Below, piece after piece: positions 4,012-9,256 of a DNA stretch of 17,066 bases. The notes beneath the pieces are model-generated. The model had not been told where the DNA came from. It did no database searches and was given only the letters and a program-made list of their open reading frames with translations. Origin of the DNA: Candidatus Heimdallarchaeota archaeon (GTDB lineage: Archaea; Asgardarchaeota; Heimdallarchaeia; Heimdallarchaeales; Heimdallarchaeaceae); NCBI GenBank assembly GCA_016840095.1, contig JAEOSZ010000096.1, positions 1-17,066 on the forward strand, read 5' to 3'. A program made the position numbers and the translations under genes. Each line of letters opens with the position of its first letter. The stretch's first letter is position 1.

Positions 4012-4998
4012 TTATTTCTCTTCTTCTTCATCTAAGTTTTTATCCTTTTTCAATAATCTTGAATCTAAGATATCTGGTGGAATATATACATATCTTCCAC
4101 CTTCATGTCTTATATCTACTTGAGATACTAAATGCAGCTTTCTTTGAACTTCTTCTTGTGTTTGTCTCGGTCCATAATAATCTGTTCTAGGACGTTTTCT
4201 TCTTTTATTTTTCATTCTTAATGAAATAAGAGCAATGATAGATACAATCAGAACTATCCCCATAACTGCATCTCTTAGTTTAAGACTCAAACGAGAGTTG
4301 AATTCAAGAGAAATTACAACATCATGAATGTTATTATCAAGAGGCTCAAAAGCAAACCAATCATATCCATGTTCAAGAATAAAGAATCGAATACTAGAAT
4401 CAGTCCAAGAAAATGAATAAGCTGTTTCTTTCCAATTTATGTTCTTTGTAGGATCTTTCTTTGACGAATAGAACTTCACAAATCCATTATTTTCAAGAAT
4501 TGAGAGACTCAATGTATAGTTTCCTCTATCAAGGGTTTTGACAGAAATAACTGTAAGAGAAGTGTTCAATACCTTTTGTTGCTTGCTCCAGTTTTTTTGA
4601 GATAAAAAGTAATAACCCCCTTCATCTCTTTCTTGAAGTAATTCACTGTTTAAATCAACATTAATGTTTAACTCTAAGCCATTAGGATTAAAAATAATTA
4701 CTTCGTAAAACCCTTCCCAGATGAAATCAAAACTAATATCTCCAATTACATTAAATCTAGAAATGAGAATGAAAAAACTTGCATTATGAACGATGACACT
4801 ATACTCAAGAGAAGGATTTAGAACATTAGTCTTAATAGTAATCAAACTTAGCTCATCTTCAGTGATTTCAAAAGACCATGAATCATAAGCAGGTATATCT
4901 ACTAAAATTGAGTGATCGTATTCATTTTGGTTTTCTATAGCTTGGGTTGGAACTAGACACAAACTAAAAACAAAGAAAAGAAACCAGATTTTTTTCAT
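4012..4998 (-). CDS. Uncharacterised type I single-pass membrane protein (signal peptide, beta-rich ectodomain, TM, basic cytoplasmic tail)
   Basis: MKKIWFLFFVFSLCLVPTQA signal peptide; sequons NAS, NWS, NTS, NYT; TM AVMGIVLIVSIIALISL followed by RMKNKRRKRPR. Confidence 0.8.
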   Translation of the reverse strand: MKKIWFLFFVFSLCLVPTQAIENQNEYDHSILVDIPAYDSWSFEITEDELSLITIKTNVLNPSLEYSVIVHNASFFILISRFNVIGDISFDFIWEGFYEVIIFNPNGLELNINVDLNSELLQERDEGGYYFLSQKNWSKQQKVLNTSLTVISVKTLDRGNYTLSLSILENNGFVKFYSSKKDPTKNINWKETAYSFSWTDSSIRFFILEHGYDWFAFEPLDNNIHDVVISLEFNSRLSLKLRDAVMGIVLIVSIIALISLRMKNKRRKRPRTDYYGPRQTQEEVQRKLHLVSQVDIRHEGGRYVYIPPDILDSRLLKKDKNLDEEEEK

Positions 4999-5053: not shown

Positions 5054-6841
5054 TCAATCATTGAAGAAACAGTCGATATTATCCTTCAAGATTTTAACAG
5101 AACTGTGCCTTTCGAAACTGAATTCTTGGGAGAGTTTAGTTCCTCTAGGGTCCAACAATATGTGAACTGCTCTATCTCCTTTATTTCGAATAGCTCTACC
5201 TAAGCTTTGTGCGAGTCTTTGAACCATTGGGATGAATATAGTGAAATCATTGGCTATTTTGGAACCAAACTGAACTGTAAGGTCTTCATGGATAATCTGA
5301 TTTTCTTGAGAAGGTGGTGGATAAGGCAAAGCTGTTACAATTATGCCTTTAATCAAACTTCGACCATCAACAGAAAATTCTACTCCTTCACTAATTTTAC
5401 CTCCAGTAACGCACAGAATCAGCTTCTTCTCTGTAGAACTAGCTATAATTGCTTGTAAAGTAGTTATATCTAGTTCATTTGTTTCCACAATGTCTGCATT
5501 TAGTACTCCTGCATCTACTAAATCTTCCATGTATTTGTAGCTAGGAGCAAAAACCAATGTGTGTCCTTTAATTGACTCAAAGATTTTCTGTATTGTGCTA
5601 GAAATTAACACAAAATATTCGTGTGTTCTGTTATCATGTTTTCCATTCAATTTCTGATTAACAAGTATGTAGTTCTTACTCTCAATATCCTCTTTAGGAG
5701 AAAAGACTCTAAGTGTTTTTGAGTTAGATAGCTGGAAGATTTGCTTATAGGACCTTAATGGTTCAAAACTTCCTGACATTAAGATTAATCTTTTAGTTTC
5801 AATAAATTTCCTCAAAATATCGGAAGGTTGGATGTTTACTATTGATAATTTATTACCATCAGAAAGGAGTATTTTATCTTGAGAAGAAAGAAGAAAATGA
5901 TAAACTAAATAAGCATAAAAAGCTGGAGGACTATTACGAACTAATTGTCTTTGAAGTAAAGAAAATAACTCTTCTTCTAGTGATTTTAACTTATATTCAT
6001 CATAGTTTTTAGTAATTACCTCATGTCTATCAATAGTGTCTAAAAGTTCATCGTAAATAGGATGAGATAATTCTTTAGCTGCATTCTCAATGAGTGATTT
6101 GGAAATCGATTGATTGATTGGTTTATACAAATTATGTGCTTCATCTACAGCTACAAGTGTTTTTTCTAATCTAGAACCAATACTATAGAAGAATCGAGTA
6201 AACAAAGCAGTATTTTCTAGAAAGGGATAAGATGTAATTATGACATCAGCCTTTTGCATTAGAAAATATGAGAAAAAGTATGGACAGTAATTATCAGAAT
6301 TCAAACTAGTAAGAATGTCATCTTTTGAAATAATGCTTGTAAAAGATTCATACAAACGTTTTACAGATTCTAAGATATCCTCTGTTGTAGCTCTCTGAGT
6401 TTTAGCCTTAAGAGGGCATCTAGTTAGATTGCAGATATGAGTATAGATTTCACTAGGATAATCCTTTTTTGCTTTCAGACATAACTCATTCTTCCCGAGA
6501 AAAGGAACAAATATAGGAAAATTCTCAAAATGATCTTCTAGTAAATCCCAGTGTTTAACAATTTGATTGAAGATGTTAGAAAGTTCTCGTAAAAAGACAT
6601 TAATCTGAGCTTTGGTTCTTACGTAGACAACTATTTTTTCATCCTTCTTCTTTAGAGCTAACAGAGATGTAAGTAAAGCAGCAGTTTTCCCAACTCCTAT
6701 CTGGGAGGAAATGAGTAAAGGTTGAGATGAAGAGAGAATTGAACGAATTATTCTTCTTTGAGGAGCTTTCATTGTTGTGTAGGGAAATAGTATTTTAGCA
6801 ATTTCCCAACTTTCTTCAGCTTCTTCATTAATTTGGTACAA
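5054..6841 (-). CDS. XPD/Rad3/DinG family SF2 FeS-cluster DNA helicase
   Basis: Q-motif FPY...PQ, Walker A QIGVGKT, Ia VRTKAQI, four FeS Cys (GKNELC, HIC, TRCP, YCPYF), VDEAHNL, MSGSF, FAPSY, GGKISEGVEF, LPYPPP, QSLGRAIRNKGD, LLDPR. The annotated start is a TTG overlapping the upstream gene by 14 nt; the true start is uncertain. Confidence 0.92.
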   Translation of the reverse strand: MYQINEEAEESWEIAKILFPYTTMKAPQRRIIRSILSSSQPLLISSQIGVGKTAALLTSLLALKKKDEKIVVYVRTKAQINVFLRELSNIFNQIVKHWDLLEDHFENFPIFVPFLGKNELCLKAKKDYPSEIYTHICNLTRCPLKAKTQRATTEDILESVKRLYESFTSIISKDDILTSLNSDNYCPYFFSYFLMQKADVIITSYPFLENTALFTRFFYSIGSRLEKTLVAVDEAHNLYKPINQSISKSLIENAAKELSHPIYDELLDTIDRHEVITKNYDEYKLKSLEEELFSLLQRQLVRNSPPAFYAYLVYHFLLSSQDKILLSDGNKLSIVNIQPSDILRKFIETKRLILMSGSFEPLRSYKQIFQLSNSKTLRVFSPKEDIESKNYILVNQKLNGKHDNRTHEYFVLISSTIQKIFESIKGHTLVFAPSYKYMEDLVDAGVLNADIVETNELDITTLQAIIASSTEKKLILCVTGGKISEGVEFSVDGRSLIKGIIVTALPYPPPSQENQIIHEDLTVQFGSKIANDFTIFIPMVQRLAQSLGRAIRNKGDRAVHILLDPRGTKLSQEFSFERHSSVKILKDNIDCFFND

Positions 6842-8597
6842 GATTCTTCCTTCCTTCTAAATTATTGAAAATAGTTTTAGCTCTCTCTTTTGGAAAAATT
6901 TCAACTAGCTCTTTGAATGAAAGCTGATTAATGTGTTTCATTTTTTTCTCATCTAATAGAGCAGAAATACTTACTGCTTCTTGATAGGTGCAATTAGCTA
7001 AAAACTGAATGTAATTTGCTTTTTTCTCATCTGTTTCTGTTGGAGAAGTTTTTACATTGATTTGACTTCTTCTATTGTCAGATAGTGATTTTGCTAGATT
7101 AACAAAAGCTTTAGTTCTAGAATTCATTTTTTCTTCTATGTTTTTATTGAAGATAACTTGTTGATTCTGAACTAGTTTCTGTTGTACTTTTTCATCCTTA
7201 ATTACTTTCAGAACAGATTTTTCTCTATTCCGATATTTATGGAAAACTCTTTCTTCTTGAGACCTATGAGTTATCAGGAAGTAGATTTTTGATTGATTAC
7301 TTCTAGCTTCTAAGAATGTTTCATACTTAGTTGGAGTATTGAAGAATATTATTGCATCAGCTTCAGTCTTTACAAAATGAGAAGCTAAAATGACATCTAC
7401 ATCTCCTGAGTCAAAAATCTGTTTGAGTTTTGCTCTTTCTTTTGATTGACTTCTTGGAAGAATCTTACTCCTTAATCCAATTTCTTTGAGATATTTTGGA
7501 AGCTGAGAAAGGATATTTTTGTGATTAGCAACTATGTAGAAATTCTTGTAATTCAGTTTGTTTTTCATTTGATTAATTAGTTGCTTGATCCTCTCAAACT
7601 TTGGATGAATAGTGGATTCAGATAGAGTAATCAAATTATCATAAATCTCCTCAAAAACAGGTGTTCGAGCAAAACTACTGATTTTCTTGATATTCTTCTC
7701 AGTATTTTCTTTATCTCTTTTTCTCAATTTCTTCATATAATCCAAAGCTACTTTTGGACCTGAAGCTTCAACTAATTCTTTGATCGAAATGAAGTTGATG
7801 AGTTCAATAGCTTTCCTAATCAAAACTTGCTGTTCATCAAAGTCGAATTTTGTTTTCAATCCTTGAACAAAACCTCGAAAATCTTTTCTTACAGCAAGTG
7901 GTCTTTCAACTCCTTTAGCTTTCAGAAAATTCTGATATTCTCTGATGAAACGATTGACTTCAAAACAGAAATTGTACATTTCTTTGTTAATTGGAACAGT
8001 AATTACATCCTCACGAGATGTAAAAGAATGATCAAAAGGTTGAGAGCTAGGTTCGATATATTCGATTTTTGTTATGAGTAAATTCTCACATACCTCTATT
8101 AAGGAATTAGTATTCTGGAAAATATATCTAGTCAAACCAATATTTCTTATGAGAATTTTATTGTTCAGAAAAACTTCCATTAGTTGAACAGATGAATGCT
8201 TTCCCTTAGATAAATGGGCATCGAAAAATAGGAGAACATGAAAATCAGAGGGAGAGGTGATTTGCCTCAAAATATCGTTTCTAAGCAGTTGAGGGGTTAT
8301 TGCAACTATTTGAGATTCTTCATAGTTTTTTGTTCGTTTTTCAACAGGATATGTAGAAATTATATGACTTAGCTTGTAACCTTCTAGCTTGTCCTTTAGA
8401 TCTCTGAATTGATTCCAGGTTTCAGATTTATTCAGAATAATTGCTACTTTCTTTGAGTCATCCTTCTTTAGAAAATATTTGATTAAAACCTCCAAAATTG
8501 AATTGATGGAGAAGTTAACAGGATATATTAACAGAGTGTTATCTTTAACAGCTGTACCTAGAATCACTTGTGTGTAAGTATCAATATTTTCTTTCAT
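6828..8597 (-). CDS. Hef/FANCM/XPF-family helicase-like protein, predicted catalytically inactive, no ERCC4 nuclease domain, putative C-terminal HhH
   Basis: Colinear with archaeal Hef: NTLLIYP, VEKRTKNYEESQIVAITPQLLRNDIL, LLFFDAH, IGLT, EVCENLLITKIE, helical insertion, HPKFERIKQLI, FDSGDVDVILAS, IIFFN, IYFLITHRSQEE. Walker A, DEAH and motifs III, V and VI are degenerate. The last ~65 aa resemble the XPF (HhH)2 region. Confidence 0.78.
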   Translation of the reverse strand: MKENIDTYTQVILGTAVKDNTLLIYPVNFSINSILEVLIKYFLKKDDSKKVAIILNKSETWNQFRDLKDKLEGYKLSHIISTYPVEKRTKNYEESQIVAITPQLLRNDILRQITSPSDFHVLLFFDAHLSKGKHSSVQLMEVFLNNKILIRNIGLTRYIFQNTNSLIEVCENLLITKIEYIEPSSQPFDHSFTSREDVITVPINKEMYNFCFEVNRFIREYQNFLKAKGVERPLAVRKDFRGFVQGLKTKFDFDEQQVLIRKAIELINFISIKELVEASGPKVALDYMKKLRKRDKENTEKNIKKISSFARTPVFEEIYDNLITLSESTIHPKFERIKQLINQMKNKLNYKNFYIVANHKNILSQLPKYLKEIGLRSKILPRSQSKERAKLKQIFDSGDVDVILASHFVKTEADAIIFFNTPTKYETFLEARSNQSKIYFLITHRSQEERVFHKYRNREKSVLKVIKDEKVQQKLVQNQQVIFNKNIEEKMNSRTKAFVNLAKSLSDNRRSQINVKTSPTETDEKKANYIQFLANCTYQEAVSISALLDEKKMKHINQLSFKELVEIFPKERAKTIFNNLEGRKNLVPN

Positions 8598-8700
8598 TTA
8601 GAATCCTTCTAATGAATACTTTCAGAGATGTATTTACACTATTATGACCAAAATGGCTTATAAAGTGATGAAAATTTCCAAGATTGTGTAATCATTTTCT

Positions 8701-8715
8701 AGAAATCTTTTTATC
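8701..8715 (+). promoter_or_regulatory. BRE/TATA-like promoter element for the Cys-rich membrane protein gene
   Basis: AGAAA followed by TTTTTATC (8708-8715), starting 30 nt before ATG 8738; supports 8738 over 8684 as the start. Confidence 0.45.
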
Positions 8716-8737
8716 TGCTTGTATATGTGTTGTCTTT

Positions 8738-9256
8738 ATGGAAGAAGAAAAGCCTTCTAAATCAGATCCATCTGAAGAACCAGTTCAACCCCCATATCAA
8801 CCCCCATATCAACCTCCAGAACCCATTCAGCCAGAATATCAAGGTCCAGAATTTCAAGGCCCCCCTTATGCTCCTCCGCCTTTAACTGAAGAAGAAAGAC
8901 GTAGAAAGAGAAGACGTAGAATAATCATTATTATATCAATTGTTTTTGGTGGATTAGTAGTTTTAGGGTTAATTGGAATAGGAATAATATATGCAATTGG
9001 ACAATCAATATCAGCGGTTTGTCAATCTATGTGTGCAAGTTGCACTTGTGATTGTGGCTGCGATGAAGCATGTAATAATGCCTGTACTAATAGTTGTAAC
9101 AGTTGTGGTGATAACTGTAGTAGTGATTGTTGTAGTTCAGGTAGTGGAGGATCAGGTGCTGGTGGGGCAGGTGGAATTGAATCTATTGATATAAAAACAT
9201 ACTTCAAATATCTTTGGCAGTACATAGAAAATTGGTTCAGGAATTTCTTCCCTTAG
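8738..9256 (+). CDS. Uncharacterised Pro-rich / TM / 13-Cys membrane protein with C-terminal aromatic amphipathic helix
   Basis: 172 aa from ATG 8738: acidic/Pro-rich N-terminus (QPPY repeats), RRRKRRRR, long hydrophobic TM, 13 Cys in 38 residues (9020-9133), Gly/Ser linker, tail YFKYLWQYIENWFRNFFP. Confidence 0.8.
   Translation: MEEEKPSKSDPSEEPVQPPYQPPYQPPEPIQPEYQGPEFQGPPYAPPPLTEEERRRKRRRRIIIIISIVFGGLVVLGLIGIGIIYAIGQSISAVCQSMCASCTCDCGCDEACNNACTNSCNSCGDNCSSDCCSSGSGGSGAGGAGGIESIDIKTYFKYLWQYIENWFRNFFP
8785..8814 (+). repeat. 12-bp in-frame tandem repeat (TCAACCCCCATA x2.5) encoding QPPY
   Basis: tcaacccccata tcaacccccata tcaacc read directly from the sequence. Confidence 0.85.

Follow-up and report, generated by a model that had tools for sequence, protein, structure and literature searches.

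The locus examined here raises the question of whether a protein of the Hef family that has lost its helicase motifs is maintained by the cell and, if so, in what capacity. The locus lies in a 17,066-nt stretch of DNA (hereafter the window) from Candidatus Heimdallarchaeota archaeon (GCA_016840095.1, contig JAEOSZ010000096.1), the genome of which belongs to the Heimdallarchaeaceae (family f1 of our data set). On the minus strand, to which all window coordinates given here refer unless indicated otherwise, an open reading frame (ORF) at 6828..8597 was found to encode a 589-aa motif-dead paralogue of the Hef/FANCM family (P0001); the 589 codons are open in a region of 31% G+C, with the window overall at 30-36% G+C. 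The original prediction, made from the letters of the sequence, described the product as a Hef-like protein of superfamily 2 (SF2) with degenerate catalytic motifs and intact fold landmarks, and proposed that it is a maintained pseudo-enzyme comparable to the inactive helicase-like module of eukaryotic XPF/Rad1. As judged at the sequence level, P0001 is a pseudohelicase, in that purifying selection acts on a gene from which the catalytic residues have disappeared. The evidence for this finding, the role that P0001 may have and the alternatives to that role are presented below.

The relationship of P0001 to Hef was examined by sequence and profile comparison. Searches against Pfam returned nothing above threshold for P0001, and the NCBIfam Hef equivalog model NF010337 was matched at an E-value of 9e-28 (96.8 bits), with aa 7-527 aligned to model positions 19-562 of 781. 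This match covers the helicase part only and is below the curated cut-off of the model (610 bits), compared with 868 bits for the canonical Hef of the same genome. Against the PDB, the best sequence match of P0001 was the helicase domain of Pyrococcus furiosus Hef (1wp9, E-value 3.5e-15), and a profile built from the family detected (i) 1wp9 at an E-value of 2.7e-29; (ii) the FANCM translocase 9el5 at an E-value of 7e-20; and (iii) Dicer-type helicases thereafter. Among PDB sequences, the family profile detected no XPF chain at an E-value ≤ 1. P0001 is homologous to Hef, far beyond what chance would allow.

The catalytic motifs were read from a HMMER alignment of P0001 to 1wp9 and from an alignment with the canonical Hef of the same genome (L002:1319-3817:-), an 832-aa protein that has PTGLGKT, DEAH, QRKGRTGR, the ERK nuclease motif and a double helix-hairpin-helix domain, (HhH)2. 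In P0001 the Walker A position is occupied by PVNFSIN (aa 26-32, 8502..8522) in place of PTGLGKT, such that the Gly-Lys-Thr is gone, and motif II reads FDAH (aa 125-128, 8214..8225) in place of DEAH. Motif III is reduced to TRYI (aa 156-159, 8121..8132; read from the alignment to 1wp9) where TASP was expected, the motif V relic SHFVKTEAD (aa 406-414, 7356..7382) is about 5 residues shorter than in canonical Hef, and motif VI is represented by ETFLEARS (aa 426-433, 7299..7322) instead of QRxGRTGR, with the arginine finger absent and a 5-residue deletion at or after the motif when compared with canonical Hef. The substitutions listed in the original prediction were found to be right residue for residue against both 1wp9 and the organism's own canonical Hef, and the landmarks it had reported as kept are real, namely TPQLLRND, CENLLITKIE, the helical insertion and HPK, along 589 uninterrupted codons. 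When the family to which P0001 belongs was examined, GK[TS] and QRxGRxGR were absent from all 12 of its library clusters, and members at about 26% identity (genera g3 and g4) were equally devoid of Walker A and motif VI. Motif II was found in the variants SDAI, ANAG, DNAH, DEAH, EEAH and LHAD; DEAH is still present in a few orthologues (P0017 and P0018), and Walker A or motif VI in none. The loss of the motifs is thus family-wide and old, and P0001 is predicted to be devoid of ATPase activity.

The fold of the protein was modeled with AlphaFold2 (AF2) on 20 homologues (mean predicted local distance difference test [pLDDT] score 79.5). The model displayed, in order, a RecA1 lobe, a helical insertion, a RecA2 lobe, long helices, about 15 disordered residues and a four-helix tail. 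A Foldseek search with this model placed 1wp9 (E-value 1e-22) and 9el5 on top, and the VIA Z-scores were 26.1 for FANCM (9el5, 464 residues), 23.8 for Hef (1wp9) and 19.5 for human XPF (9qec, 438 residues); after Hef and FANCM, the fold neighbours included LGP2, MDA5, RIG-I, DRH-1 and Dicer (Z 19.6-22). The structural kinship to Hef that had been proposed is therefore borne out, with FANCM as the best structural match. By sequence (E-value 2.7e-29) and by structure, P0001 has the Hef/FANCM/RIG-I-like SF2 fold of two RecA-like lobes and a helical insertion, which speaks to homology and not to activity.

Within this fold, the domain boundaries were set from the alignments and predicted secondary structure for the RecA1-like lobe, and from the alignment, the AF2 model and conservation for the parts that follow it. 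The RecA1-like lobe (aa 7-185, 8043..8579) keeps TPQLLRND (aa 101-108), of which T101, P102, N107 and D108 are invariant, and carries a family-specific invariant GKH at aa 132-134. It is followed by (i) a helical insertion domain (aa 196-330, 7608..8012) equivalent to Hef domain 2, or Hel2i; (ii) a RecA2-like lobe (aa 331-445, 7263..7607), which begins with an invariant HPK; and (iii) post-RecA2 helices (aa 446-506, 7080..7262), which are bordered by the conserved family motifs THRSQEER (aa 443-450), NQQ and RTKA. Across 20 sequences of the dead family 100 columns are invariant, and the conserved motifs with invariant or near-invariant core residues were TPQxxxND, GKH, PINK, NRYIREYQ, HPK, THRSQEER, NQQ and RTKA. 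Conservation was highest in the insertion domain and the post-RecA2 helices, where mean pairwise identity reached 64% and 28-29% of the columns were invariant (29% for the insertion domain), compared with 51% identity for the RecA lobes, and the RecA2-like lobe was the least conserved folded part (10% invariant columns). An ERCC4 nuclease domain (GDxnERKxxxD) was not found in P0001, as the match to the Hef model ends at position 562 of 781 and no ERK motif was detected; only 15 disordered residues are predicted by AF2 between the helical linker and the tail, and no longer form fused to a nuclease was found among the dead-family matches of an exhaustive profile search of 1.84 billion representatives. 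P0001 is, in its layout, Hef minus the nuclease: the dead helicase core is joined by a helical linker to a probable (HhH)2-fold tail that lacks the hairpin glycines.

The tail (aa 522-585, 6843..7034) was assigned from the fold of an isolated model. An AF2 model of the C-terminal 74 residues of P0001 by themselves, built on 23 tails, had a pLDDT of 87.5, and its VIA Z-scores were 7.1 for the NusA AR, 7.0 for FAAP24, 6.7 for Hef (1x2i, 66 of 68 residues), 6.5 for FANCM, 6.2 for XPF and 6.1 for ERCC1; these values are middling (below 8), and NusA and SAM domains score similarly. Comparison of the tail profile to the C-termini of canonical Hefs by hhalign gave a P-value of 0.065 and covered the second HhH only. 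Pfam searches with the tail and with aa 440-589 returned nothing meaningful and no HhH match, and the first match of an Atlas feature search with aa 440-589 was an archaeal ERCC4/HhH cluster (0.77), which is taken as a lead only. Based on the modeled fold, the tail appears to be an (HhH)2-fold relic, for which a role in dimerisation is more probable than one in clamping DNA.

The distribution of the family was examined next to its rate of change. The exhaustive profile search returned 12 clusters of at least 159 bits, which constitute the dead family, and after a gap the canonical Hefs at 140 bits or less. Of the matches at or below 140 bits, 31 proteins (mostly the best-scoring) were checked, and all were found to carry at least one of Walker A and motif VI, the majority having the two together with DExH. 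A word-indexed search identified 20 proteins with lengths of about 590 aa and identities of 41-88%, named solely from Heimdallarchaeota or Asgard metagenome-assembled genomes (MAGs). The dead Hef was present in 15 of the 21 genomes of the Heimdallarchaeaceae, spread over four genera (g1 to g4; one g3 genome is named Candidatus Heimdallarchaeum aukensis by one source), and in none of 180 Asgard genomes outside this family at an E-value ≤ 1e-40. The ratio of nonsynonymous to synonymous substitution rates (dN/dS) of P0001 to an orthologue of 88% identity was 0.056 (dS 1.14), and two other pairs, which involve an orthologue of 77% identity, gave 0.065 and 0.056 with dS near saturation. In comparison with genome G115, the sole same-genus pair with usable dS, the ratio was 0.083 for the dead Hef versus 0.052 for canonical Hef. 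Across five same-genus genome pairs the dN of the dead Hef was higher than that of canonical Hef by a factor of 2.1-3.0 and higher than that of the neighbouring XPD-like gene described below by a factor of 1.6-2.4, and cross-genus identity was 27-34% for the dead paralogue versus 58-67% for canonical Hef. These sequence comparisons indicate that the dead Hef is under relaxed but clearly purifying selection, and the check among orthologues that had been suggested (0.056 at dS 1.1, and 0.083) disclosed no neutral decay.

The possible partner of P0001 is encoded immediately downstream, the minus-strand order being P0001 (6828-8597), P0002 (5054-6841) and an ORF at 4012-4998. P0002 (595 aa, 5054..6841) was identified by profile matches and ortholog alignment as an XPD/Rad3-family Fe-S helicase paralogue, in which Walker A, DEAH, motif VI and four cysteines (C121, C137, C142 and C186) are invariant in 25 orthologues. 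Its score to the rad3 model was 132 bits (cut-off 247) compared with 332 bits for the canonical XPD of the same genome, and by these features P0002 is a divergent but intact extra XPD paralogue. With a canonical Hef and a canonical XPD also encoded in the genome, each gene of the dead Hef/XPD-like unit is a supernumerary paralogue, and a further XPD paralogue was detected in the same genome besides canonical XPD and P0002. The two genes were found to overlap by 14 nt (6828..6841), from the TTG start codon of the XPD-like gene to the stop codon of P0001, with GGAAGGAAG just before. The 14-nt overlap and TTG start recur in 10 further loci of g1 and g2 with enough downstream DNA, including nine of g1 (L014, L015, L019-L021, L023, L024, L027 and L028) and one of g2 (L030, the same as L034); the overlap is kept down to 34% identity of the dead Hef, and the called gene tables agree. 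In g1 and g2 the dead Hef and XPD-like genes form an overlapping two-gene unit that is probably translationally coupled, and both genes are present in all four genera. Upstream of the P0001 ATG, a possible archaeal TATA box (TTTATAA, 8658..8664) was noted at about 64 nt, and AAGGA at 6 nt, both by reading of the sequence; the sequencing runs listed for the genome were marine-sediment DNA runs only, with no RNA run among them.

Additional features of this neighbourhood were recorded. The ORF at 4012-4998 (328 aa) was considered as a third gene of the module and rejected, since it has no DNA-related match, is equipped with a signal peptide and a C-terminal membrane anchor, and is missing at the P0020 locus. 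Its N-terminus is signal-peptide-like, the C-terminal membrane anchor is followed by a basic stretch, and no family match was found; an ORF of like size (289-333 aa) is located after the XPD-like gene in three other g1 loci that were checked. On the opposite strand of the window, at 8684-9256(+), is a divergently transcribed ORF of 190 aa with a weak match to TIGR04117 (Cys-Xaa-Xaa-Xaa repeat radical-SAM target; E-value 1.7e-7, below cut-off). In one NCBI MAG the XPD-like gene is split into two ORFs of 94 and 497 aa (L012:9757-11557), and in a Logan contig with an identical dead Hef protein the gene is a single 605-aa ORF (L011:9730-11547); the split is likely a frameshift or an assembly error.

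When these findings are considered together, the reading that we favour, and hold to be somewhat better than an even proposition, is that P0001 is a non-catalytic adaptor which binds DNA structures and dimerises, probably in the service of the XPD-like helicase. According to this model, P0001 (i) would no longer move on DNA; (ii) would recognise branched or partly single-stranded DNA independently of ATP, through the kept strand-binding motif TPQxxxND and the insertion domain; (iii) would dimerise through its (HhH)2 tail; and (iv) would position or regulate the co-expressed 5′-3′ XPD-like helicase at branched or partly single-stranded structures. Hef requires its insertion domain to recognise forks, and in XPF and Dicer the helicase-like domain acts as a platform for proteins. 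The partnership with the XPD-like helicase is suggested by the gene arrangement, and several observations weigh against the proposed role. DNA binding by P0001 is itself a prediction, and the Gly-h-Gly is replaced in both HhH hairpins (NCT and IFP), which disfavours classical HhH-DNA contacts. In g3 and g4 the dead Hef and XPD-like genes are 24-30 kb apart with other neighbours; thus, the operon is not universal. The gene that follows the dead Hef in g3, at a distance of 359 nt, is RadA-like (L031:7579-8670:+ in G026; 230 bits, just under the RadA cut-off), and in g4 the gene for a 343-aa P-loop ATPase, weakly RadB/RFC-like, overlaps the dead Hef by 8 nt (L033:6703-7734:+ in G086). Furthermore, the wider g1 neighbourhood (amidohydrolase, DegV, EamA and PAC2) is likewise syntenic, so that adjacency alone is weak evidence. 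A structure prediction of the complex of the full-length XPD-like protein with aa 186-589 of P0001 (the RecA1-like lobe omitted) gave no answer, with a score of 0.00, and is evidence neither way.

Alternatives to the adaptor role were weighed against the same data. That P0001 is a decaying pseudogene or an annotation artefact might be argued from the loss of all catalytic motifs and a dN two to three times that of canonical Hef, and is hardly credible when set beside 589 codons that remain open at 31% G+C, the presence in 15 genomes, spread over four genera, of orthologues that are open over their full length, a dN/dS of 0.05-0.08 and 100 invariant columns in 20 sequences. The invariant columns, the dN/dS values, the orthologue distribution and the rate comparison refute this explanation, and the proposal of a maintained pseudo-enzyme holds at the sequence level, with the orthologues not being intact enzymes. 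P0001 could in principle still act as an NTPase or translocase that makes use of non-canonical residues, for example the invariant Gly-Lys-His (aa 132-134) that follows motif II near the former active site, and DEAH is kept in a few orthologues. This explanation is rated as highly improbable: no member of the family has a P-loop, the arginine finger of motif VI is deleted, motifs III and V are replaced, with deletions, and the motif II position varies so freely (FDAH, SDAI, ANAG and LHAD) as to be ill-suited to catalysis.

If P0001 is a non-catalytic protein, its partner need not be the XPD-like helicase. It may instead be the non-catalytic partner of canonical Hef, with which it would form a heterodimer by way of the (HhH)2 tail, as in ERCC1-XPF or FAAP24-FANCM, such that the symmetric Hef homodimer becomes an asymmetric complex with one active subunit. 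In the XPF family, dimers form through the ERCC4 and (HhH)2 domains, and in eukaryotes a catalytic subunit is joined by a non-catalytic one. Consistent with such a heterodimer, the tail is modeled in an (HhH)2 fold with FAAP24, Hef, FANCM, XPF and ERCC1 among its top neighbours (Z 6.1-7.0), canonical Hef was found in every dead-Hef genome checked (including 5 of 5 relatives), and a second dead family described below keeps an ERCC4-fold domain without ERK, ERCC4 being the other dimerisation domain of the XPF family. Counter to this, the canonical Hef gene is unlinked and on a different contig, the tail Z-scores are below 8 with NusA and SAM domains alike, by sequence the tail bears no significant resemblance to that of Hef (P-value 0.065), and the tight gene overlap is with the XPD-like gene and not with Hef; pairing with canonical Hef is thus considered possible but unlikely. 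A role unrelated to DNA repair, as an RNA-binding or defence sensor scaffold like the helicase domains of RIG-I-like proteins or Dicer, was also considered, based on the fold neighbours that rank after Hef and FANCM and on a match of P0002 to the PADLOC 'type IV DinG' model (184 bits). This match is generic, as other XPD paralogues of the genome score 324 and 434 bits, P0001 has no PADLOC match, no CRISPR-like repeat array was detected in the window, the ORFs scanned are housekeeping and transport genes in a conserved chromosomal context, and the closest sequence relatives of P0001 are the DNA enzymes Hef and FANCM. The generic DinG match and the lack of a CRISPR-like array in the window led to rejection of a defence system at this locus, and a sensor scaffold of this type is rated as very unlikely. 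An adaptor for the XPD-like helicase remains the role that we prefer for P0001.

The origin of the dead Hef was examined along with a second dead Hef-like family that was identified in Heimdallarchaeial family f5 (L044:1318-3249:+, 643 aa, the same as G062:C24:5307-7235; relatives L050-L058). This second family was found in 10 of 10 f5 genomes and in 0 of 191 others, the genome of the window included in the count. Its members have no Walker A, DEAH or motif VI and keep TPxTxKND, HPK and KQTNEEARFF. Four of nine are extended by a C-terminal domain that spans about 150 aa; the ESM Atlas model of this domain matched archaeal Hef/XPF ERCC4 domains at a template modeling (TM) score of 0.58-0.60 over about 130 residues in all six rows, and the ERK position reads IPK, VPD or is otherwise degenerate. 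By this modeling, the f5 family is a Hef derivative in which a dead helicase is combined with a dead nuclease. A feature search also returned SPO16/SCRE at 0.79, as a lead only. In the tree, the dead family of the window was monophyletic (SH-aLRT 99) on a long stem and was placed outside the clade of f1 canonical Hefs, adjoining the f5 dead family (SH-aLRT 94 and 83). A single clade of the dead family with the f1 canonical Hefs was rejected by the approximately unbiased (AU) test under LG+G4 (P-value 0.013), the group having been named after the tree was seen and the branches being long. A recent duplication of the f1 Hef as the source of the dead family is disfavoured by these sequence data, a judgement that is unsafe because of the long branches. 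No link to eukaryotic proteins was seen in the trees, which held no labelled XPF sequences, and no description of either dead Hef family was found in the literature searched.

Other Hef-related sequences were observed in the genome and its relatives. A third Hef-like helicase of 542 aa (L004:1459-3087:+ in G000:C143, and L046 in G003) has GTGKT, DEAT and QRRERARG with no nuclease, and is on a very long tree branch (3.08). Nuclease-only XPF-like matches of about 234-240 aa (Hef model positions 555-754) were found in other Heimdallarchaeial families (L040 in G062:C90 and L041 in G015:C23), where they are reported with internal stop codons; no match of this type was listed for three f1 relatives searched at the same threshold. 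Three canonical Hef matches (L060, L063 and L064 in G115, G166 and G157) each include one in-frame stop (TAA or TAG), which is probably due to the match running upstream of the true start codon.

The Hef/XPF/FANCM family is a textbook example of enzymes that retain dead modules, the helicase in the case of XPF and the nuclease in that of FANCM, and both of these proteins are associated with an inactive partner. To our knowledge, this habit has so far been a eukaryotic trait, with archaeal Hef a fully active homodimer. The stand-alone dead Hef under selection in the Heimdallarchaeaceae shows that the archaeal lineage closest to eukaryotes has given rise to non-catalytic derivatives of Hef as well. 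Compared with archaeal Hef (1wp9, and 1x2i for the (HhH)2 domain), P0001 is of the same family (E-value 2.7e-29), fold (Z 23.8) and domain order (RecA1, insertion, RecA2 and, by its modeled fold, a probable (HhH)2) and retains TPQxxxND, NLxIxxIE and HPK. It differs in the loss of Walker A and of motifs III, V and VI, in a degenerate DEAH, and in the absence of the ERCC4 nuclease and of the glycines of the HhH hairpins; in addition, it coexists with a true Hef and evolves two to three times faster. FANCM (9el5) is the top structural match (Z 26.1 over 464 residues), and the tail resembles the (HhH)2 domains of the FANCM-FAAP24 pair (4bxo and 9hjo; FAAP24 Z 7.0, FANCM Z 6.5), which keeps dead modules as well in the form of a dead ERCC4 domain with (HhH)2. 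FANCM combines an active motor with a dead nuclease, whereas the motor of P0001 is dead and the nuclease absent, and no phylogenetic link between the two was found.

The parallel to XPF/Rad1 that was drawn originally stands as an analogy. The helicase-like domain of XPF/Rad1 (6sxa and 9qec) is likewise an SF2 module of Hef type from which the ATPase motifs have disappeared and which persists as a platform for structure or regulation. However, the XPF chain also includes an active ERCC4 nuclease, and its partner is ERCC1, whereas P0001 is without a nuclease; the fold match to XPF (Z 19.5) is weaker than that to FANCM (26.1) or Hef (23.8), and the family profile misses XPF. The shared dead helicase-like module is thus probably not a sign of specific kinship. 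A broader conjecture, which we regard as doubtful, is that both Heimdallarchaeial dead families supply inactive subunits, which would form heterodimers with canonical Hef, bring in an XPD-family helicase, or both, and that they perhaps share an origin with the dead helicase-like domains of the eukaryotic XPF family. If true, the pairing of catalytic with non-catalytic subunits in XPF-ERCC1, FANCM-FAAP24 and Zip2-Spo16 would have a precedent among prokaryotes, and in those most closely related to eukaryotes.

The PriA of Deinococcus radiodurans is a pseudohelicase with no ATPase activity that still binds fork DNA and the helicase DnaB (PMC4504706). This PriA is of an unrelated SF2 family, is the only PriA of its genome and has been tested biochemically, whereas the properties of P0001 are predicted. 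As a prokaryotic SF2 homologue that contacts an active helicase, D. radiodurans PriA is a working model for P0001, and the dead Hef and XPD-like pair offers a simple two-protein system in which to ask how an Fe-S helicase is served by a Hef scaffold without a motor.

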